A DNA stretch of 64,000 bases, from assembly GCA_963804995.1 (NCBI GenBank), contig CAWDSK010000006.1, positions 832,001 through 896,000 of the forward strand. The letters run 5' to 3'. This document shows, piece by piece, positions 45,498-59,037 of this stretch. The stretch comes from an uncultured Acidobacteriota bacterium (GTDB lineage: Bacteria; Acidobacteriota; Terriglobia; UBA7540). The position numbers were made by a program, and so were the translations under genes. Numbering within the stretch: the stretch's first letter is position 1; each line of letters starts with the position of its first letter. The notes under the pieces are model-generated. The model saw only the letters and a program-made list of their open reading frames with translations. It was not told the DNA's origin and did no database searches.

Positions 45498-48400
45498 TCA
45501 GAAGGTAAACTTCATAGCGAACTGTAAAACGCGCGGCGTCCATGCCCCTGACACCTCACCCATGCCATAATTGTTGGCGATGCCGCTGCACGGAGATCCA
45601 AAAGGCGTACTGCCGCCACAGCCAGCGTTAATGTTATTCCACTGTGTGTGATTGAAGGTGTTAAACGTTTCGAAGCGGAATTGTAGCGATGAGTGTTCGC
45701 CTCGCGCCCAAGGCAATTGAAAGTCTTTGAGCAGGGCTAAGTCCCAGTTATTTCGGCCCGGTCCAGTGAGGGCGTTCCGTCCCATATAGCCGAACATCCC
45801 CGGTTCACCGCTGGCGCTGAACTGGGAGAGATTCGGCTGGCCGACACTATTTGGATCATACCACATCTGAGTAGGTCCGAATTGAGGGTCGTTGTAAGTA
45901 GATTTCCTGATCTTGACCGGGGCGAGCGAGTTGCAACGCATTCCTTCACTGATACCGTTGCTCATTCCGTCTACACCGCAGCCGAAGTTCACCGGCTCCC
46001 CGCTGTAGAAAGTCGTAATCCCACTCACCGCCCAGCCACCCAGCGCCGTCTTTACTGTGGCCTTAGAGGCATTCTTGAAGAACGGCAGGTCGTACATGTA
46101 ATTCATCACCAGAGCGTGGGTACGGTTAAAGTCCGACGTGGCAAACCAGCGGTTTAGGTTGGACTCGTCCACATACAAATAGCCGTTTCCGCTCTCGTTG
46201 TCAATCCCGTGAGCATATGTGTAGGCCGCCTCGAAGCTCACGCCATGTCCAAACCTATGGCGCAAGTCCGCTTGCAAAGAGTTGTAATGAGAGGAGGCTG
46301 CATATTCGTAATAGTCGATCTGGCTGTAAGCGCGATACGGAAAAAAGAAGATGTTCGGCTGGATCTGGTTCATCAGGATGGACTGGACATCACAGTTGCC
46401 CGAGACATCGCATCCCGTTGTCCCGGCTAGGGCTGGAACGTTCATAGTTCCTACACCATCAGGTATGCGGGTGAGGTTCGAGGTGCGGCTCAGGTGCCGC
46501 CCCAAAGTCCCAACCCATCCTATGCTCAGAACAGTATCCGATGGAAACTCGTGCTGCACCGTGAGATTGTACTGCTGCGACGACTGCCAAGGTCCGGAGG
46601 ATGGATAGGCGGATACATACACCGGAGCTAGAGGGCCCTGCGCTAAGCTCTCGTAACCGTTAATGTTGTACCCGACAGGTTTAAATGACGTTGGCGGATT
46701 TCCAATTCCCACTTCCGAATTCCCGTAGGAAGACAAGTTGTCATAGAAAATGCCATATCCCCCACGGATAGAGGTCTTGCCACTGCCGGTAGGATCAAGG
46801 GCAAACCCGAGGCGCGGCGTAAACATATTCCGCGGCACGTTCCGGCAACCTACGGGAATCCCTGTCGACCCGCATTGTACCAAGCCGTTCCCGAACATCG
46901 TGTAGTTATATCCGGTACCTTGGACTATGTTTCCGTCGATATCGAGCTGAGCTTGTTTCGCCGGATCGTACAGTGCAGGGAAGAAATCCGCGTCGTTGGT
47001 GGGAATGGAGAAATCGTGTTCGGGTGTCGAAGCGTAGTAACGCAACCCCAGGTTGAGGGTCAACCTGCGGTTAACCTTCCAGTCATCCTGGATATAAGGC
47101 TCGTATTGCTGCTTGCGCTCGCGCGTCCAGCCCCATCCCCCCACCGGGACGCCACCAGAAACGGCGGTGCGCTCCGTGTACGAATAGATCCGGCCCAAAA
47201 ACATATCGGCTAAACCATTCTTCGTCGTGAGAGGTCCTCCGCCCGTAAAGACGTAGTTCCCCATCGGGTCGGCATCCGACCCCGGGCCCGAAGTGTGATA
47301 GATCAAAGCCTGCAACCCAAACTTAAGGGTGTGTCTACCCACCGTCCAGGCCACGTTGTCTCTCAACGTATTCACGGGGAACCACTGGCGATAGTTGGTC
47401 AAATGCACGGCCATGGTAAAATGGAAGGGCGTGCCCCCAGAAACCTTGATTCCAGGCAGATAGGGGATCGCAGCGTTGGGAGCGAAGAAGTTTCCCGCGG
47501 TCCAGTTGGAGGGCTTGGTGATCGATCCTGAGGGAGACGTAGGGCTGACCAAAGGAGTGTAAATCTGATCCGTGCGAGAGTACCCATAGATGAACTCGTT
47601 CATCAGGTTGGGCTTGAAGGTGTGGACCAGGTGCAGCCAAGCCATCGGAGTCGGAATCGACCTGTGCGTCTCTACGGTGTCGTAAGTGTTGGAAGAATAT
47701 AGGGCCGGGGCGACGATCTTGGTCCACGACTTGTGTGAGTACTTGACGAAAAGTCTAGTATTGTCACCGATATTCTGATCCACACGCGCGCTGATTTCCA
47801 GCAAATCCGCCGGCACCTTGATAGAACTCACGTAACTGTCAACGCCGTTATTGGGAAGAGGAACGAACGCATCGAGCATCGGCTTTGCGTTGGGATCGAT
47901 AGGCACAGTGTCCCCTGGGAACGGCTGGCCGGTGGCAGGATTTATGGGTAACCTGCAGCCGGAAGCAACCACGGCGTTGTAATTGGCAGACATTGGGTCG
48001 CATTCACTGAAATCCCCCTGCCGCATCCGCAGACTCGGCACACCGCTGGGGCCAATTTCCTTCCCGTCACGATACTTCGCCCAGTACTGGGAATAGTAGA
48101 AAAAAGTCTTCGACTTATCCGTGTTGTAATGGCCGGGAATATAGACCGGCCCGCCGAGGGTGAAGCCGAAAGTGTTAGCTTGCAAGGGGGCCTTTGGAGC
48201 GTTACAAGGTCCGGCAGGGTTTCCGCCACAGTCTGCTTGCACATTTAAGCTGCTCCAAGGTTCTCGGTTAATAAAAAAATCATTGGCGTTGAGGGCTTGG
48301 TTCTTGACGAATTCGAACGCCGTGCCGTGAAAGTCCTTCGTCCCAGACTTCGTGACGACGTTCAATCTGGGCTGCGCCCCGTGAGCCCAGATCTGCGCCA

Positions 48401-49140
48401 TAGTTGGCGGTGGAGACCCGGAACTCGGCAATGGATTCGATGCTCGGAAACTCCACCAGGGTAACGCCGCCGCTGCTATTATCCTCGGCGCTCTGGCCGT
48501 TGAGATTCCAATTGGTGGAATCCTCCCGCAACCCGTTGAAGGACATGTAAGCTCTGTAGCCGTGGCCGATATGCGAAAGGTCTGCACTATTATCGGGGCT
48601 TGCCCCGGGAACCAGGAAGCTAAGCTGCTGAAATTGGCGCCCGGCTAGGGCCAGGGTGACGATTTGACTTCCTGTCACCACGTCGGAAACGGATCCGCTC
48701 TCCGTTTCCACTTTCGTGACGTTCCCAGCGACGGTGATTTGCTGCGTCACCTGACCGAGCGTGAGCTGCATGTCTAACCGGAGCGTCTGGTCGACTTCAA
48801 GCCTGATCCCTGTGCGCACCAACTTCTGGAAACCCGAAACCTCGGCGCTGACGACGTAGTTGCCGATGGGAACCTTATCGGCCCTATATTCTCCCGCTGA
48901 ATTCGTCACCGTATTGCGAACAAAGCCTCGGTCGGGATTTGAAACCACAATCTTGGCTCCTGGCACGATGGCACCTGTGGAGTCCGTCACTATGCCCACA
49001 ATCGTGGCTTGATCCTGCGCCCAAGCCGCGACCGGCGAGAGCAAAACAAGGGCCAATATGAGCAAGCCCAGCTTCCCGATAACGTCTGTCGGAGATAGAT
49101 ACCCCTCTCTCTTGTCAAACCGTTGAGATTTACGCTCCAT
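45498..49140 (-). pseudogene. TonB-dependent receptor, Oar-like, +1 frameshift near 48364
   Basis: N-part (48280-49140) and C-part join at GAAQ/NVVTKSGT; C-terminal PRVLQFAMKFTF. Confidence 0.88.
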
Positions 49141-50543
49141 AAATCACTCTCCTTTACTCTTGTGGGTTCTTCTCAGGAGCGACGCTTATAAATTAACTGC
49201 CATGAGTACTGCAAAACTAGTGGAGAAGGCCTTCCATCGAAAACCCCAAATCCCGCGACCGTCAATTCTTCGACCCATTCCTTCCAGACCCGACGACCAA
49301 CACCGTCGCGGCCCATAGAGCGGATGCACAAACATCCTTGTGAACTGGACGGATTCACTCGCTCCTTCCTTGCGTCAACCTTCTTATTCGGTTAAATGGC
49401 GGGGAATTTGGGAAACTGGCAGGCTCCTCCTTTTTCTGAGGATTCCGCGTTCCTGAAATGAACGGCATTTACCACTAAAGGCGCGGTCTGTCAAGACAAA
49501 TCTTGGGATTTTGCAGCCCGTGATAGAACACGTTGAGGGCTCGCAGGTAAGTCTCTGCTTTCGCAGCAAAGGAGCTAAGTCGGATGAGAATGGGAAAGGG
49601 GTCGACCTAAATTCCGGAAGTTGCACGCATGGCGAAAGTCGGCGTGACAACCGCTTCGCGAGTGATCAACGGTTCGGATCTCACTTGTCCCTACCAATAA
49701 TCTCGTTCATCTTGAAATCATTGATCTTCTCAGGAGACGTTGTTAGCCTTGCTCGTCCATGTTTACTCCACTCCTTTGCGCATTGGTTAGCATCCGAGCT
49801 TGGTTTCGAAGTTGAGCAGTGCTGCAAATGGAGAACCTTGCCCTGCGCCACCAACTGATAGTTCTTAAGAGGTCTCAGCGTGGCCGGCTTCGTCTGGACT
49901 CCGCCGACCGATGGCTTTGGATTTGGCTCGCTCGCTTCTGGTCGAACTGGCGCTCGGCGTTGCTCATCGTCAAGCCCGAAACGGTAATCGCCTGGCATCG
50001 CCAGGGATTCCGCTGGTATTGGAGATGGAAGAGTCGGCACGGCGAGCCGGGAAGGCCTACCATCGAGTTGGAGGTTCGGGAGTTGATCCGAAAGATGAGT
50101 CTGGCGAACCCGCTCTGGGGAGCACCCCGTATTCATGGGGAATTGCTCAAGCTCGGAATCCAAGTGTCACAAGCCACAGTCGCGAAGTACATGGCTCGGC
50201 AACGAAGACCGCCATCCCAGACGTGGCGTACTTTCCTTGAGAACCACGTGCAGCAGTTGGTTGCGACGGACTTCTTCGTCGTGCCGACCGTCACTTTTCG
50301 ACTCCTATACGTCTTTATCGTCTTGGCGCACGATAGGAGACGCCTACTCCATTTTAACGTCACCGCCCATCCCACTTCCGAATGGACGGCGCAACAGCTG
50401 GTTGAGGCGTTCCCTTGGGACAGCGCGCCACGCTACCTGCTCCACGATCGCGACTCGATTTATGAAGGGGCATTCCGTCAACGAGTTCGGAGGATGGCGA
50501 TTCAGGAAGTTCTGACGGCCCCCAGATCGCCTTGGCAGAAGGC

Positions 50544-52637
50544 TTATGCTTCATACTGCACCTCATTGGTATGATTCGAGGGGTCCTCGAAGAATCGCTG
50601 CCTGGCAGCGAGCTTCGTCCCTTGCATCTTGCGCGGCGGATCATCGCCGGGGTGTTCATATAAACACTCGTTTTTCTCGTTGTAGGCTTGAGCTCTTAAC
50701 AGACCATGGTCCCGCCAGACTTTCACCCACCCGGTGGAGATGCCGAGCAGCTTAGCCATCTCTTGCAGGGTCAACAGGCCGGCTCCGCGTAGGCGAGTGT
50801 AACCGCTCTTCAAGGCATAGTTACGCCGTATGCGCGCGACGATGTGAGGGCTGAAGGGCCTGCCTTCGCCCGAGAGCCAGCCGCGTTCATTCAGCAGGCT
50901 AGCGATCTGCCGATCGGTACGTTGATCCAGGAGCCGGTCGATCTCCGCCACCACCTCCGGCTTGGTGGTGCGCTGTTTCCAGGCATTGAGGGGGATGGGC
51001 AAATGCAGGGTCTTTGTAGCTCCCCCCTTGAAGCGGATCTGAAGCGTGATCTCATGGTTGCGGGTCAACGTGACGTCTTCCAATAGAAGGCGGACCATAC
51101 GCTTCCGTTCTCGATGTGGCGTTTTCGCATCGCGCCACAGCCGAGGGAAGTCTGTGGCCAGGGCAAAAATCTGAGCGCGTTCCTCTTCCCGACACAACCC
51201 ACGGTCGACCTGACGTTGACGTTGATACTCTTGCTGAGCCTCTCCCAGAGCACGCAGCTTGTGGTTCCAGTCGGCCTCGAGCGAATCCGCCACGAGCCGG
51301 TTGTCGGGATCGCAACGCAAGTAGCGCCGCTCGGCCAGCTCCGCCTCATACCGGGCGCGCTCAACTTGGGTTTGGCGCAACCGATCCGCTTCTTCCCAAC
51401 GAGACTGAAGTTCTTGCTGCACGCTCAGCGCCACCTCCAGGGCTAACGGAGTGACCACTTCGATCAGCAGTTCCCCGATGGCCTGGTCGATACCCGCTCC
51501 AGGAACCGTCTGGCAGATGGTTTGAGCGTGTTCGATACCGTACCGCTGACACACATAATGGGGGGCCAGGCGTGACCGGTGAACATGATAACGCACGGTC
51601 ATCCGATTCCCACAGCGGCCACAGATCACTAATCCCTGCAGAAGCGCTGGACCTTCCCGCGGAGGGCTTTGACGACGGTCGGGACCCCAAGCTTGCGCGG
51701 ATTCCCGTAACCGCCGCTGATTGCTCTCATATTCTTCCCAGGAGAGGTAACCCGCATGGGCCCCAGGAAGGCAAGTGTCCCACTCCTCGCGAGGCAACCA
51801 CTTCACCGTCACGCCACCCTCCAGCTTCTTGCGCGTCTGACTCCGGCCAAAGACGTAGGCCCCGGCATACCGAGGATTGTGCAAAACGCGCAGGACATGG
51901 CTGTGAACAAGTTCCACCCATACCAACTCTCCTTGGTGGGGCCCCGCCCGCAGGCGGCGGGGAAACAGCAGCCCCTGCTGGCGAAAGGCCTTCACCGTGG
52001 CCAGGGCGGATCCCGTACGACGGAAGGTTTCAAACAAGAGTCGAAGGCCCTGTTGCACCTGCTGGTCCGGATCGAGAACGAGTTGCCCCGAGCCGTTATA
52101 GACCAAGCCGACCGGAGGTGGGATCTCCAACTCACCGCGCCGAGCTTTGCTGAGGATTCCGCCTCGCAACCGGGCTCGCAGCACGTGCAGTTCCGCCTCG
52201 CTCATCGTGCCTTTCAGCCCCAACAGCAGGCGGTCATTAAAGTGCGCCGGGTCGTAGATGCCATCTTCATCCAAAATGAGCGTGTCGGTGAGCGCGCAGA
52301 TCTCCAGCAGTCGATGCCAGTCCGTGGAGTTGCGCGCCAGGCGCGACACCTCGAGACCCAGAACGATCCCTGCTCGCCCCATCCCCACTTCACTCACCAA
52401 CCTTTGAAATCCCTCTCGGTCTACCGCCGAAGCTCCCGACTGGCCTTGATCGTTGTCGATCACGATGATCCGTTCCAAAGGCCAGCCCAGGGCCACGGCC
52501 TGTTGGCGTAACGCGTACTGGCGCTGGGTGCTCTCGGTATTCTCAAAGACCTGCCGAAGCGTGGACTGCCGGATATACAGGTAGGCGTCGCGTTTCAAAT
52601 GGTGGGCTTGAACCTTCTGCGGCATTTCGGTTCTCAT
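50544..52637 (-). CDS. Large serine recombinase (resolvase, recombinase and Zn-ribbon domains)
   Basis: AYLYIRQST, EVSRLARN, LLQGLVICGRCG, DPDNRLVA. Confidence 0.95.
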   Translation of the reverse strand: MRTEMPQKVQAHHLKRDAYLYIRQSTLRQVFENTESTQRQYALRQQAVALGWPLERIIVIDNDQGQSGASAVDREGFQRLVSEVGMGRAGIVLGLEVSRLARNSTDWHRLLEICALTDTLILDEDGIYDPAHFNDRLLLGLKGTMSEAELHVLRARLRGGILSKARRGELEIPPPVGLVYNGSGQLVLDPDQQVQQGLRLLFETFRRTGSALATVKAFRQQGLLFPRRLRAGPHQGELVWVELVHSHVLRVLHNPRYAGAYVFGRSQTRKKLEGGVTVKWLPREEWDTCLPGAHAGYLSWEEYESNQRRLRESAQAWGPDRRQSPPREGPALLQGLVICGRCGNRMTVRYHVHRSRLAPHYVCQRYGIEHAQTICQTVPGAGIDQAIGELLIEVVTPLALEVALSVQQELQSRWEEADRLRQTQVERARYEAELAERRYLRCDPDNRLVADSLEADWNHKLRALGEAQQEYQRQRQVDRGLCREEERAQIFALATDFPRLWRDAKTPHRERKRMVRLLLEDVTLTRNHEITLQIRFKGGATKTLHLPIPLNAWKQRTTKPEVVAEIDRLLDQRTDRQIASLLNERGWLSGEGRPFSPHIVARIRRNYALKSGYTRLRGAGLLTLQEMAKLLGISTGWVKVWRDHGLLRAQAYNEKNECLYEHPGDDPPRKMQGTKLAARQRFFEDPSNHTNEVQYEA

Positions 52638-52939
52638 CCTCTCACCTCCGGCCGACTGTGAAGTACCATGCTCGCCAGAATCGTAACCACTTCCGTGTGC
52701 AGATCGAGAGGAACCCTCTCCTCAGGGCCGGACGGATTCTGGGGTTTCATCGGAATCCCACCCGGCAGGCAGTGGGACCAGGCTTCCATCCAGCCTTTCA
52801 TCCCCTGGCGAATAAACAGCGCCAGGCCCAAGGCTCCGCGCCTGCCGCCTAACTCACCCCGCACTTGTCGCCGGAGTTCCTCATATTGGTTTACGATCCC
52901 CTCCTGGGCCATCAGGGGAGCAACGGGAGGGTCGCTCAA
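52634..52939 (-). CDS. Small accessory protein of LSR element
   Basis: YEELR...GLALFIRQGMKGW; TTGA and ATGA overlaps with neighbours (translational coupling). Confidence 0.7.
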   Translation of the reverse strand: MSDPPVAPLMAQEGIVNQYEELRRQVRGELGGRRGALGLALFIRQGMKGWMEAWSHCLPGGIPMKPQNPSGPEERVPLDLHTEVVTILASMVLHSRPEVRG

Positions 52940-53403
52940 CGTCGTTTTTTTTGCTGCTGCCGAAGCCGGCGCTCCAAGCTGCGAGGATGGACCCGTAGAC
53001 GGAAGGCTTTCTTCACCCGGGCCGCCAGTTCCTCGCTCCGCAAGGAGGGTTCGGCAGCTCGGGCCTGCCGGACGAACTCCATTACCTCGGCCGTGAGCTT
53101 GTGGGCGTGCCGAGGTCCCCGTTTCTGGGGAATCAATCCTGCGAGTCCCCTGGCTACGAAGCCCGCCTGGGCGAGGTAGAAGGAGGGTCTGGAGAAACCA
53201 AAAGCCTCCGCCGCTTGGCTCACCGCTTGGTTTTCGACCCTCACTTGGCGCAGCATCTCGTACTTGACCTGCAGCAAGTCCCGGGGATCGAAGAAGTCGC
53301 TGTCCTGGAACAGGGCGTGGGCCACCTCCTGCGGGCGGGGATTCAAGGTACCTTGGGAGCGCAGGATATGGCGCTTGGCATCGTGGCGTGAGGAAGGGGA
53401 CAT
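52936..53403 (-). CDS. Helix-turn-helix protein of LSR element
   Basis: FFDPRDLLQVKYEMLR, FGFSRPSFY, GLAGLIPQKRGP; GGAGGAG RBS. Confidence 0.85.
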   Translation of the reverse strand: MSPSSRHDAKRHILRSQGTLNPRPQEVAHALFQDSDFFDPRDLLQVKYEMLRQVRVENQAVSQAAEAFGFSRPSFYLAQAGFVARGLAGLIPQKRGPRHAHKLTAEVMEFVRQARAAEPSLRSEELAARVKKAFRLRVHPRSLERRLRQQQKKRR

Positions 53404-53444
53404 GGGCTCCTCCGGAGCAAATCCGGCAAACGAGTGTAATGTTA

Positions 53445-53473
53445 ATTATATACATTCTCTTGCTCCCTGTCAA
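53445..53473 (-). promoter_or_regulatory. Perfect sigma70 consensus promoter for the HTH-accessory-recombinase operon
   Basis: TTGACA-17nt-TATAAT on minus strand. Confidence 0.8.
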
Positions 53474-53623
53474 GCCTTTTCTATCCTCCGACCCGAATTT
53501 GTGTTGCACAATAAGCGGATATTGCACTCACACACCCACCGAAAACTCTGGACTTCGGCTCAAGCTCCGACATAATCCCTTTAACACAAACGGCGTAATT
53601 CCCTTTACAGACCTTCCGGGGCT

Positions 53624-53918
53624 TCAGGACCGTAAACCCTCCACCAAACGCACCAATTCAATCAGGTCCTCAACGCGAAAATACGAGCGGCCTCCCCCTA
53701 TGACCACGAATGGGTCCTCCCCCACGACACTCGTCCACCGCGCCGGTAGCGAGGTCAACTGGCCTCCTTCGTCGTAGAAATACACTCGGTCCTCCCCCCA
53801 GTTCTGGCGGTAGTCCACCCATTCGAATTCACGTTGGAACAGTGGATGGTAAGGGTGAGTTACTCGGAAACGTCGTTTTGAATAGTCTCTATGGTGTGTA
53901 GTTGACAACCTGATCCAA
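53624..53918 (-). CDS. Terminal small protein of LSR element (DUF5372/y4bD-like by recall), 5' end open at element boundary
   Basis: FRVTHPYHPL...WGEDRVYF...SLPARWTS...DPF...GRSYFRVEDL; no RBS plus ATG inside this end of the element. Confidence 0.75.
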
Positions 53919-54366
53919 TCCATACGTCGAGCGCCTAGTGGGCTCGATCCGGCGCGAGTGCCTGGACCATGTTGTTGTGTTCAACGAGTCTTCTCTGCGT
54001 GGCCTTCTAAATTCTTATTTCGCGTATTACCTACATTCGCGAACACATCTGGCGTTGGTGAAGGATGCCCCGGAAGCGAGGGTTATCCAAGGGCCGGAAT
54101 TCGGTGCCGTGGCAGAGATCCCCGAAGTTGGAGGACTCCATCACCGTTATGAACGGCGAGCAGCTTGAAGTGTCATTCCCCCAAGAGACAGTCTTGAGTT
54201 TCCTTCCGGCGCCAGCAGAGATTGGCGTTGGATGACAGAACCACGGATCGATTCCAGGATCCGTCTCCGCGAGAACGATGGTGAGGATATCGTGCGCTGC
54301 TGCTGGGAGGCACACGGAGCCATCTCGGATTATCTTCCTACTGCGATCGAGTTTTTGGTATGGACA

Positions 54367-56436: not shown

Positions 56437-56614
56437 GGCCTGCGTGCGGTTCGCGGAGCAACTCGACAACCTGCAATCACCGGAGAATCTCGCGGCGCTG
56501 GTGGCTCCCCAGGACGAAAAATCGCTGCTCATGCAAAGAATGGAAGATTCCAACCTGCGCCAATTGTGGCGGCTTACGAACGTGCTATTTAAGGTCCGCA
56601 ACGGAGCGCTGACC

Positions 56615-58559
56615 GGTTCTGTCAAAAGTTTTATGAAAGGTAATGAAGGGTCGGGAGGTGGGTAGAGCTGGGGGATTTGCCCCCAGACCCCCAGGATTTA
56701 TCGCTTTGGTGCCAAGATGGGTCTGGACTGGGGGAGCGAGTGGGGCTCGCTCCCGACCGATCTCGGCCCCGGGGTCGGCGCTCAGGTCGCATCCCTGCGG
56801 AGCCCTATCCTCCGCCCCGGCCACCGCGAAGTTTACTCCCACCGGGCTCAGGCCGCCAGGGCGAGAGCGAGGATCTTGTTCCACTGGCCTTGCAAGGTGG
56901 TGAGGGAACTCAACTCCGGCAAGGGGATGGGTACGCGGTAGCCCAGGGCCAGATGGGGGCGAAGGAAGTTGTAGTGGGTGACGAACAGGGTGGTGAGGGC
57001 CACGGCGCCGTTGCGCGTGGCAAAGCCGCAAGCCGGGCGGACGTGGTATTTGTAGGTGCGATTGAGACGTTCGATGAGTTGCTTGAAGGGGCGGAATTCC
57101 TTGGAGACCGCGTCGAGGTTTTCCAGGCCGATGACCTGCCGCAAGGTATGGGGAGGTTGGGAAGCGGTGCGGTGAGCGTTGAGGAAGTGTACGCCGGCCT
57201 GATAAGCGGGGTTGCCGTCGGTGATGAAACGCAGGGCCTGATCTTCGGGCAAGGTGCGCGCGGCCTCGCCCAGGGCCACGGTGGCGGCCAAGGCATCGCG
57301 CTCCGGCGCCACGTGATAGGACGTGATGCGATGCCCTTGGGGATCGAGAAAGAAGAACGTGTATGGGTGCTTCCCCGCGACGCGAATATAAGTCTCGTCG
57401 CCGGTGGCGGTGGCGCTGAGCGGGGCTTTGTAGCGGAGGTTGAAGGCGTGGCAGTAGTAAGCGGCGGCCTGGGCATAGTTGAGAACGGACTGGTAGCTGA
57501 GAGGCACGCCGAAGACTTGCCGCAGGACCTGGGCGGTCTTGCGGGCGGAGAGGGCGAAAGAGATGTGGAAGGCCAACACCAGGCCCAAGACATCGGAAGA
57601 ACGATGCAGACGGGTGAGGTCGACGGTGGGCGGATCGGGAGCGGTGGGGGCCAGTTGGGCGGGTTGAAAGTGGTATTCGCGATACTGGTAACGCAGCTTG
57701 AACTGCGTGCGGCGCAGCTTCTGGAGCAACTTCTCGTTCCAGTGCAGGGCTTGCTGCTTCTGGAGATAGTGAGGACAACGCTCGCCAGGACATTTGTAGA
57801 TGGTGCAATCGGCACGCTGCTTCCAGCGGAAGAGGGAGCTGCCGCAGTAGGGGCACCAGTAAGGAGTTTTCGTCGGGCGATGACGACGAGCGATTTGCGA
57901 CAGCCGGCCACAGACTTTGCAGCGCAGTTGGCGGGCGTGACGGCCATCGTTGAGGTAGAGGAAGTCGCGCGGTGCGCCGCAGTGGGCACAACGACAAGTG
58001 GGAGGCAGGGGGTGGGCGCCAGAACGCTGAATCGGAGCCAACGGTCGGCGGTGCTGGCGCTGGTACTGAGCCAGCAACTGCCGCCAGTTCCAGGTGCGAG
58101 GTGCCGGAGGCGGCTGGGTCAAGGGAGCCAGAGGGTCAACGTAGAAGTCGCGATAGTGTGGATGCTGCTGGCGAAAGTCGTCGCGGGGTTGAGGCTCGGG
58201 CTGGCGCCCGGCGAGAATCTCTTGCAGTTGCTCGACCAGTTCCTGCAAATCCTGGCGGGTAAATTTCCTACAGAGCCAAAGCACCAATCGTGGTATCTTG
58301 CCCATGGCGGTGAGTCTCTCGGGAACCTGGCGGGTTCCCTACAAGGTGGATTGGGAAAGAGAGACTTCACCGCCCTTTTTGTTTGCCGTCAAGCCCCACG
58401 ACGCAGTTACGTCCAGGAACTTAAGCGCGGCAACCCGACCGCACCTCACGCCAACGTCCTAGTCAAGCGCACCCGGAGGGGGGAGAAAGCAGAAAATCCA
58501 GTTTCTCCCAGCAATTCAATGGGTTATCGCCTTAGGGGACAAAAATTCTTGACACAACC
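56615..58559 (-). mobile_element. IS6-like element (1945 bp)
   Basis: IRs GGTTCTGTCAA / GGTTGTGTCAA; perfect 8-bp duplication CGCTGACC (56607-56614, 58560-58567). Confidence 0.9.
56848..58305 (-). CDS. DDE transposase with multiple Zn-finger motifs
   Basis: CAHC, CKVC, CPYC, CPGERC; GDETYI, ITDGNPAY, IERLNRTYK, YNFLRPH. Confidence 0.9.
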   Translation of the reverse strand: MGKIPRLVLWLCRKFTRQDLQELVEQLQEILAGRQPEPQPRDDFRQQHPHYRDFYVDPLAPLTQPPPAPRTWNWRQLLAQYQRQHRRPLAPIQRSGAHPLPPTCRCAHCGAPRDFLYLNDGRHARQLRCKVCGRLSQIARRHRPTKTPYWCPYCGSSLFRWKQRADCTIYKCPGERCPHYLQKQQALHWNEKLLQKLRRTQFKLRYQYREYHFQPAQLAPTAPDPPTVDLTRLHRSSDVLGLVLAFHISFALSARKTAQVLRQVFGVPLSYQSVLNYAQAAAYYCHAFNLRYKAPLSATATGDETYIRVAGKHPYTFFFLDPQGHRITSYHVAPERDALAATVALGEAARTLPEDQALRFITDGNPAYQAGVHFLNAHRTASQPPHTLRQVIGLENLDAVSKEFRPFKQLIERLNRTYKYHVRPACGFATRNGAVALTTLFVTHYNFLRPHLALGYRVPIPLPELSSLTTLQGQWNKILALALAA

Positions 58560-59037
58560 CGCTGACCCATAGAGATGTTAAAAATGAAGATCGACCCGGG
58601 GATGTGTATGAAAACAAAGGCGAGGATGACAAAATGTCGTGCAATTTACCAGTGTTTTTCCAAGAAAATGCAGAAATTTCACGATAATTCACACCATTGA
58701 ACAGATTTTTGACAGAAATTACGGGTTGCGCGGTAATTCGGGGCAAAGGCAGATGGCTTTTTTTGAAGACAAAAATGAGCATATCGCGCTACTCGCGGGC
58801 AGGGGCATAAATTCGCGCGAATCCAGAGGGTGCAACCCGGGTTGGATTGTGTTGGCGAAATGGCCTTCCAATGGAAAGGCAAATGCCGGAGGCGGACCGG
58901 CCTGTTCCTGCGGTGGCTGCCGCGTCCCTGACGTAGCACAGGGAAAAAATCCGCGCCTGTCATGGGTTGAATTTCGCAGCCTGGCAGGGCCGACCGAGTA
59001 CTGTGGGGTGGCAGGTCGCCCCAAAGCGGAGCAGCAA

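Follow-up and report, generated by a model that had tools for sequence, protein, structure and literature searches.

A DUF5372 gene that is very probably completed by joining of the ends of its serine-recombinase element

The stretch of DNA analysed here (the window, 64,000 nucleotides of contig CAWDSK010000006.1 from an uncultured Acidobacteriota bacterium) contains an element of the large-serine-recombinase type which occupies positions 50541-53916 (3376 nucleotides, 3.38 kb) between two TT cores and splits a transposase gene. Read along the minus strand, the element comprises, in this order, the body of a DUF5372 gene, a sigma-70 promoter, a helix-turn-helix (HTH) gene, a small open reading frame (ORF) termed orf2 and the recombinase gene. 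The start signals and the body of the DUF5372 gene lie at opposite ends of the element, and joining of these ends very probably completes the gene as the last of the operon, a reading drawn from the sequence and from joined DNA seen in relatives, from which the protein would be translated. The locus is made up of the following features.

49819-50538, plus strand: 5' part of the host transposase gene, the insertion target, of the integrase-core type, with an HTH_21 match and weak IS3/IS481 family matches
50539-50540: right-end 2-bp crossover core, TT on the minus and AA on the plus strand
50541-50566, minus strand: right arm of the attachment (att) site, with a Shine-Dalgarno (SD) motif (50564-50559), an ATG (50554-50552) and the first DUF5372 codons, overlapping the last recombinase codons
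50544-52637, minus strand: large serine recombinase of 697 amino acids (aa), matching Resolvase (PF00239), Recombinase (PF07508) and Zn_ribbon_recom (PF13408) above the Pfam cut-offs
about 52634-52930, minus strand: orf2, overlapping the recombinase start and without a conserved start of its own
52945-52952, minus strand: A8 run, a candidate slippage or frameshift site, directly before the HTH stop
52936-53403, minus strand: HTH protein of 155 aa, matching HTH_32, HTH_29 and HTH_28 above the cut-offs
53445-53473, minus strand: sigma-70 promoter, TTGACA-17-TATAAT, a 12/12 consensus match
53569-53608, minus strand: two imperfect 17-nucleotide direct repeats, located after the DUF5372 stop and ahead of the promoter
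53624-53916, minus strand: DUF5372 body of the Y4bD/Y4pK type (PF17342, 79.8 bits), without ribosome-binding site (RBS) or start and open to the element boundary
53917-53918: left-end 2-bp crossover core, where the identity of copies ends and the host frame is restored
53919-54168, plus strand: 3' part of the host transposase gene, cut four codons before a conserved glutamate, with a weak rve_3 match (E 0.086)

The recombinase ends at a stop codon at 50546-50544, and its residues S25, C339, C342, C363 and C375 are invariant across 49 sequences. The original prediction had pointed to the perfect promoter, to a GAGGTG followed 4 nucleotides later by an ATG in the recombinase tail and to a terminal ORF which runs open to the boundary without an RBS and ATG of its own, all of which are present as described (the ORF at 53916-53624). 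Joining through the core, as it also proposed, yields an in-frame ORF of 102 aa (306 coding nucleotides). Since the promoter lies downstream of the integrated DUF5372 body, it can transcribe DUF5372 only across joined ends, and no minus-strand terminator was found, so that a transcript could cross the joint. The best promoter match reaches at least 10/12 in 51 of 64 distinct elements. In the integrated state the right-end start opens a frame of only 64 aa, which lies in the flank.

The source genome contains four copies of the element which differ at 3-4 positions and lie antisense in four different transposase genes, all at the same codon boundary; removal of the element restores an open transposase frame in 4/4, and the gene interrupted in the window has an intact paralogue at C6:298518-299740. 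The copy at C6 about 764600-768000 has a 1-nucleotide insertion in its recombinase gene, and the nearest relative fetched is locus L001 (Terriglobia, 98%). In a motif-free comparison of copies within one genome, identity ended exactly at the left core in five of six groups and 9 nucleotides beyond it in the sixth; on the right side divergence starts at +2, +2, +5, +8, +23 or not within 60 nucleotides, and never within the element. Because copies diverge at the left core and the host frame is restored in all four cases, the position of the boundary does not depend on the ATG.

Conservation was assessed in 85 loci, comprising the best 80 of 512 from genome contigs, a repeat on the Sinorhizobium fredii NGR234 plasmid pNGR234a (L081) and the four own copies. 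Right ends were located by a motif model masked at -14 to -9, the start-codon positions, and left ends were searched in any frame; a profile of host transposases from the source genome proved of insufficient length to define ends alone and was left unused. Right ends were accepted in 78 loci, left ends in 79 and both in 73. The right ends of L001, L014, L063, L065, L068 and L071 (negative scores; truncated or interrupted) and of L023 (score 3) were dropped, and no ends could be assigned in L089, L093, L095, L096 and L097. Both ends share the same core dinucleotide in 72 of the 73 elements, with no longer duplication; the core of L066 is CG on either side, and its target contains an arginine codon.

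Conservation of the frame across homologous junctions, by which the original prediction wished to be judged, is borne out by a whole joined ORF of 92-123 aa in 69 of the 73 elements. Clustering of these elements by recombinase identity gives 33 groups at 90%, 31 of them with a whole ORF, and 20 at 80%, of which 19 have one. The plasmid elements with both ends, from Rhodococcus, Aromatoleum, Bradyrhizobium, Streptomyces, Sinorhizobium and Rhizobium, likewise give a whole joined ORF of 106-113 aa in 6/6, at 52-57% recombinase identity. A start codon in frame with DUF5372 is present in every one of the 46 distinct right arms; it is GTG (24 arms) or ATG (18) at -14 and ATG (2), GTG (1) or TTG (1) at -11, the latter being the four arms that have lost the -14 start and in which a same-frame start replaces it. 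The arms are related and therefore do not amount to 46 independent trials; for comparison, 6.6% of TT sites in the source genome have a start at -14 or -11, and 0.6% have one with an SD-like motif and no stop. An SD-like motif is found in 44/46 arms, and neither start nor SD is lost in any of the 15 arms whose recombinase has an earlier stop or finishes in a different frame. None of the 36 distinct 15-nucleotide right arms has a stop in the DUF5372 frame, and L100, in which both ends are visible, has ATG at -14. At the left end a stop in the DUF5372 frame occurs in 1/61 segments, versus 44 and 53 in the other frames, and codons 1-14 contain stops in 1/54, versus 13.1 ± 2.3 in 1000 column shuffles; the adjoining flanks contain them in 29/63. 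The distance from the core to a conserved HP motif is 56, 59 or 62 nucleotides, with the exception of L067 (60).

The joined form itself is found in nature. A two-motif pattern in any frame detected five metagenome contigs that read from the recombinase tail across the core into DUF5372, and four of them are in frame, with ORFs of 119, 112, 102 and 103 aa that all score above the Pfam cut-off; the chance of at least four in frame out of five at 1 in 3 is about 0.045. Their recombinases are 43-55% identical to that of the window element, which makes them relatives. The joined contig L084 runs on into the HTH gene and orf2, and L086 into a promoter-like stretch. The circular intermediates on which the original prediction depends would account for these contigs, as would tandem copies. 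One contig in the DNA sequencing runs of relatives spans the unoccupied site in a related host gene. A strict joined pattern matched no viral contig, none of 401 genomes of the phylum and none of 81 integrated loci, and is too strict to show absence.

The original prediction had named as caveats the 1-in-3 chance of frame agreement, an internal TTG at 53908 and a host ATG at 53923. The agreement in frame goes beyond chance, and neither start is kept among the four own copies. The TTG is TCG in 2/4 of these and is found in 5/60 segments, and was rejected as a start; the ATG occurs in 1/4 and was rejected as a general start, and the C1 copy, which has no host ATG, instead offers a TTG 41 codons upstream, accompanied by an SD-like motif. 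A conserved internal start with an RBS was looked for and none was found: 46 of the 61 left segments lack a canonical start, and the remaining 15 have one at eight scattered places, in one case with an SD-like motif. In the databases many DUF5372 proteins start within the host sequence, two codons ahead of the core, and the junction-type start is annotated in 1 of 280 database proteins with the HP motif (P0288). In P0127 a kinase-domain reading frame is fused in frame to a C-terminal DUF5372, and in P0133 a DUF5372 piece heads a TPR-CHAT protein.

The symmetry of the att site was considered as the whole cause of the right-end motif. Positions 15-22 from the core are mirrored on both arms and the start codon (positions 12-14) is not; SD positions 23-24 hold 1.74 and 1.65 bits of information on the right arm versus 0.28 and 0.65 on the left. 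Symmetry is accepted as the explanation of -15 to -22 and rejected as that of the start codon and of part of the SD, because the start codon and SD positions -23/-24 have no mirror image on the left arm. A rough ratio of non-synonymous to synonymous polymorphism (pN/pS) is 1.03 for codons 1-8, 0.59 for codons 9-14 and 0.12 for codons 15-19. This low constraint, together with the low confidence of the first 11 residues in the structural model, indicates that the right end supplies start signals and not structure.

The model of the DUF5372 protein is a small beta barrel followed by C-terminal helices (mean predicted local distance difference test score, pLDDT, 79). Fold searches returned generic SH3/KOW-like barrels only, the best with Z 5.4 and a root mean square deviation (rmsd) of 3.7 over 54 aligned residues. 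A profile search of solved-structure sequences gave 0 matches to a solved relative, and no viral structural match was obtained at E 0.001. An Atlas search with a DUF5372 homologue returned DUF5372 clusters only, apart from an unnamed cluster of 199 aa at 0.89, and there was nothing for orf2; the DUF5372 profile matches 2105 clusters at 50% identity. There is no recombinase-DUF5372 fusion among 21 longer proteins, which is weak evidence. The modelled complex of DUF5372 and recombinase scores 0.72, versus 0.00 for the best of three controls, on a scale whose mark is reached by 116/157 solved and 2/215 mismatched pairs; the runs agree in at least 65% of contacts and the partner pLDDT is at least 70. 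Modelled contacts involve recombinase residues 338-343, 394-413, 482-523 and 533-541 and a DUF5372 interface consisting mainly of residues 69-95 with 22-26. They would map to the zinc ribbon and the two feet of the coiled coil, the feet being placed from sequence, which makes DUF5372 a predicted partner of the recombinase at the zinc-ribbon/coiled-coil junction. The original prediction had asked whether the small protein is a directionality or targeting factor, and of this the role of a recombinase cofactor is what the model supports. Known recombination directionality factors (RDFs) bind their recombinases at the zinc-domain/coiled-coil junction (PMC12286644; papers are cited by PubMed Central accession). 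A recombinase-RDF structure has already been solved, so that likeness of the site may help the score of the complex.

The HTH protein has partial IS630/IS481 matches below the cut-off and resembles the DNA-binding part of IS630/IS481 transposases, and orf2 has no Pfam or NCBIfam match. Across 75 distinct junctions orf2 lies in the -1 frame relative to the HTH gene in 62, in the +1 frame in 11 and in an in-frame fusion in 2 (L092, L098); the rows for L018, L024 and L089 are unreliable. A run of at least six A, mostly eight or nine, precedes the HTH stop in 70 of the 75 junctions, and only 40% of the lysine codons in the recombinase genes are AAA. Judging from these frames orf2 is probably the 3' half of a recoded HTH-orf2 gene, and the A8/A9 run suggests that the fusion arises through transcriptional slippage or frameshifting. 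The 17-nucleotide repeats upstream of the promoter are possible HTH binding sites; in 64 elements the pattern occurs in two copies in 3, in one copy in 17 and not at all in 44. Similar stretches also follow DUF5372 in L082, L083 and L086. In L089 the recombinase is annotated at 822 aa, possibly fused to a small upstream ORF, and no DUF5372 was found in that locus.

The targets vary widely in sequence and are nearly all transposase genes cut at one codon position. Rebuilt target sites have an open antisense frame in 47/51, versus 27 each when the join is moved by 1 or 2 nucleotides, and a glutamate stands at +5 after the cut in 54/57 distinct flanks, versus 0 and 7 in the shifted frames; this is presumably the catalytic glutamate of DDE transposases, and the target motifs are taken to be those of IS3, IS481 and ISNCY. 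IS21 and IS66 neighbours are annotated beside some elements. The target flanks carry a common DNA consensus, and the junction is an attP-like dyad with a mirrored motif 15-22 nucleotides from the core. In large serine recombinases attP is a dyad, and in attB the distal motif is some 5 bp nearer to the core; here the 5-bp shift from attP to attB is best on one attB arm only, and the scores are negative. In L009, L050, L037, L038 and L080 the left and right flanks seemingly come from different targets, which suggests inter-copy recombination or misassembly. L051-L058 are copies in one genome with near-identical flanks, as if a host insertion sequence (IS) had carried the element along, and L027 and L028 are apparently inserted outside transposase genes. 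As elements of the main family lie antisense to their targets, read-through from the promoter would, speculatively, yield antisense RNA to the host transposase gene.

It is proposed that an IS-sized serine-recombinase element inserts antisense at one codon position in the transposase genes of other ISs by means of an attachment site located within the first codons of its own DUF5372 gene. In the integrated state the promoter would drive HTH, orf2 and recombinase, and DUF5372 would be left without promoter or start, until upon excision the transcript crosses the joint and DUF5372 is translated from the start overlapping the recombinase tail. The product would bind the recombinase at the zinc-ribbon/coiled-coil junction and alter its activity, either turning the enzyme towards integration or blocking further excision. 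The circle would in this manner make its own re-insertion factor, and re-integration would split the gene again with loss of the factor; the always-expressed HTH-orf2 product may be an excision helper or a repressor. The integration direction is favoured because a non-replicating circle gains from integrating, which is an argument from logic, and accessory proteins that raise integration have been reported for an archaeal integrase (PMC8371274). The explanation as a whole, including the promotion of integration or the blocking of excision, is given a probability of about 0.45. Put forward more tentatively is its extension to a widespread family with a reverse directionality factor, a recombinase-binding protein whose gene is assembled by excision and dismantled by integration and which is opposed by a slippage-made, always-available HTH-orf2 helper; this would constitute a self-resetting, memory-free switch at translation initiation.

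Several points weigh against this explanation. The complex model was built on custom alignments, for which the calibration is only roughly valid, and the joined contigs may be free circles or tandem copies, which are indistinguishable by sequence. The joined contig L082 has two extra bases and is out of frame, and no joint leading back was found among those listed in four DNA runs of relatives, searched as contigs only. The joined ORF is broken in four of the 73 elements (L010, L018, L067 and L080), and the dropped, low-scoring right end of L023 has CTG at -14. The TTG at 53908 has an anti-SD pairing of -6.8 kcal/mol (versus -9.3 for the junction ATG), some start is present at scattered positions in 37/60 left segments if CTG and ATH are allowed, and the host flanks provide an in-frame start in 9/57, one with an SD-like motif. 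Codons 1-8 are under no amino-acid constraint beyond that of the DNA site. Lastly, the factors described at the zinc-domain/coiled-coil junction drive excision and not integration (PMC12286644).

In the alternative that survives best, the same junction-built gene encodes a classical RDF that promotes excision and inhibits integration, such that one rare circle would trigger the excision of sister copies and be held free until the protein decays; it is nevertheless unlikely. In its favour, the joined ends form a symmetric attP-like site whose motif is mirrored, as is known of recombinases which integrate unaided. An excision factor that is made only after excision cannot start the cycle, however, and a circle held free would be lost as none of the element's four ORFs encodes a replication gene in Pfam and NCBIfam scans; moreover, the canonical 5-bp attP/attB shift is weak and confined to one arm. 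The predicted site is the one where known RDFs bind (PMC12286644). Less likely again is that the product of the junction-built gene does not set direction and instead serves target capture or selection, or the activity or stability of the recombinase on the circle. A range of different target DNA with a constant codon position of insertion would suit such a role, as would a modelled interface which leaves much of the SH3/KOW-like barrel free for another ligand, but the barrel match itself is weak and indicates no function, and the recombinase could read the consensus in the target flanks by itself. It is very improbable that the right-end SD and start are a by-product of the att site and the last recombinase codons, with DUF5372 made from integrated copies via internal, non-canonical or host starts, as the mirrored SD part at -19 to -22, the database proteins starting in the host, the natural fusion P0127 and the window ATG at 53923 would allow, since the start codon is unmirrored, shifts by exactly one codon in some lineages and is kept where the recombinase ends earlier, a canonical start is missing from three quarters of the left ends (46/61), the gene body lies upstream of the promoter and natural joined contigs hold whole ORFs.

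The split-gene arrangement appears to extend to a distant subfamily of three-gene elements, judged from their joints, in which the recombinases are about 35% identical, no HTH gene was seen, the cores are TA, GG and AG and the targets differ; as the ends were picked from four ranked candidates each, these cases are leads. With a GG core, L094 gives back an IS66 tnpB frame, and its ends join into an ORF of 171 aa with a relationship to DUF5372 (hhalign 93.6%, E 2e-7). The core of L101 (source genome, C1 about 122989-125618) is TA and returns a transposase-like frame; the joined ORF is again of 171 aa, and only its HP motif matches DUF5372 (29%). L099 is a weaker case (Pfam E 0.043). Elsewhere in the window, a 485-aa transposase-like ORF lies on the minus strand within a region of long overlapping open frames on both strands (56848-58305 and 56585-58572), and two overlapping ORFs of 286 and 1029 aa at 45498-49140, presumably TonB-dependent-receptor-like, are possibly one frameshifted gene.

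The four-gene repeat on pNGR234a, presumably y4bA-D, belongs to the same family by its gene order, ends and core and has a whole joined ORF of 107 aa. The plasmid has three full DUF5372 matches and one partial match, and the DUF5372 protein that RefSeq annotates there starts internally. Other plasmids besides pNGR234a are annotated with this order of four genes, and 390 plasmid records match the recombinase at E 1e-80. No paper was found on the ends or mechanism of the repeat (searched as y4bA, y4bC, Y4bD, Y4pK, y4pH and NGRIS-4), with subscription journals, including the original NGR234 plasmid papers, outside the scope, nor was any description found of this element or of a recombinase-cofactor translation start assembled by end joining.

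Transcription switches at the circle junction are reportedly known from Tn4451/Tn4453 TnpX and from Tn916, and Tn4451 is said to combine a large serine recombinase with a circular intermediate, as is proposed for the present element. Such switches govern the transcription of intact genes, whereas here coding sequence and translation start are assembled in addition to read-through from an internal promoter. End joining also turns on expression from Pcir of ICEclc and P3'end of ICEKp1, as it would in the present element (PMC13023037). DUF4368 is typical of the Tn4451/TndX-like multi-targeting clade, in which one recombinase cluster occurs in over three clusters of target genes (PMC10083194), and is absent here among the recombinase Pfam matches up to E 0.1. 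DUF5372 in turn is absent from the text and eight supplementary files of PMC10083194, and no paper on it was found.

Close parallels in gene architecture are the SSV-type suicidal integrases (SSV1, pTN3, pT26-2), which like the present element have an att site inside their own gene, whole only in the free form, and whose splitting is treated in a review as a form of directionality control (PMC8371274). In the SSV type, however, the tyrosine integrase itself is split and the host is archaeal (PMC8371274), whereas here the host is bacterial, the serine recombinase remains whole when integrated and it is an accessory gene which loses its RBS, start and first five codons. In mycobacteriophage BPs attP likewise lies inside a regulatory gene and the recombination state sets the product, but that gene encodes a repressor which loses a C-terminal degradation tag, so that the integrated form is active (PMC4557955); here the N-terminal start signals are removed, the joined form is complete and the product is a predicted recombinase partner. 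The RDFs of large serine integrases are small proteins at the zinc-domain/coiled-coil junction, as is predicted for DUF5372, and are made from the integrated element on induction (PMC12286644), in contrast to the DUF5372 gene, which is complete only after end joining. Att sites inside own genes (PMC8371274, PMC4557955) and junction-made transcription (PMC13023037) are already known, and what would be new, as far as the papers reached by the searches go, is the assembled translation start of a predicted recombinase cofactor.

What sets direction in serine recombinases has been asked for a long time, and the lack of any shared sequence makes directionality factors difficult to identify (PMC12286644). 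DUF5372 is a candidate whose expression is tied to the recombination state, and with defined att sites, an element of three or four genes and thousands of relatives the question of direction can be tested in vitro. An integration-promoting factor, if true, would be useful in integrase-based genetic switches. For the family itself, the proposed mechanism, if true, would give DUF5372 a function and explain its inconsistent annotated starts, in an element which inactivates, and may ride on, other insertion sequences, including those on rhizobial symbiosis plasmids.

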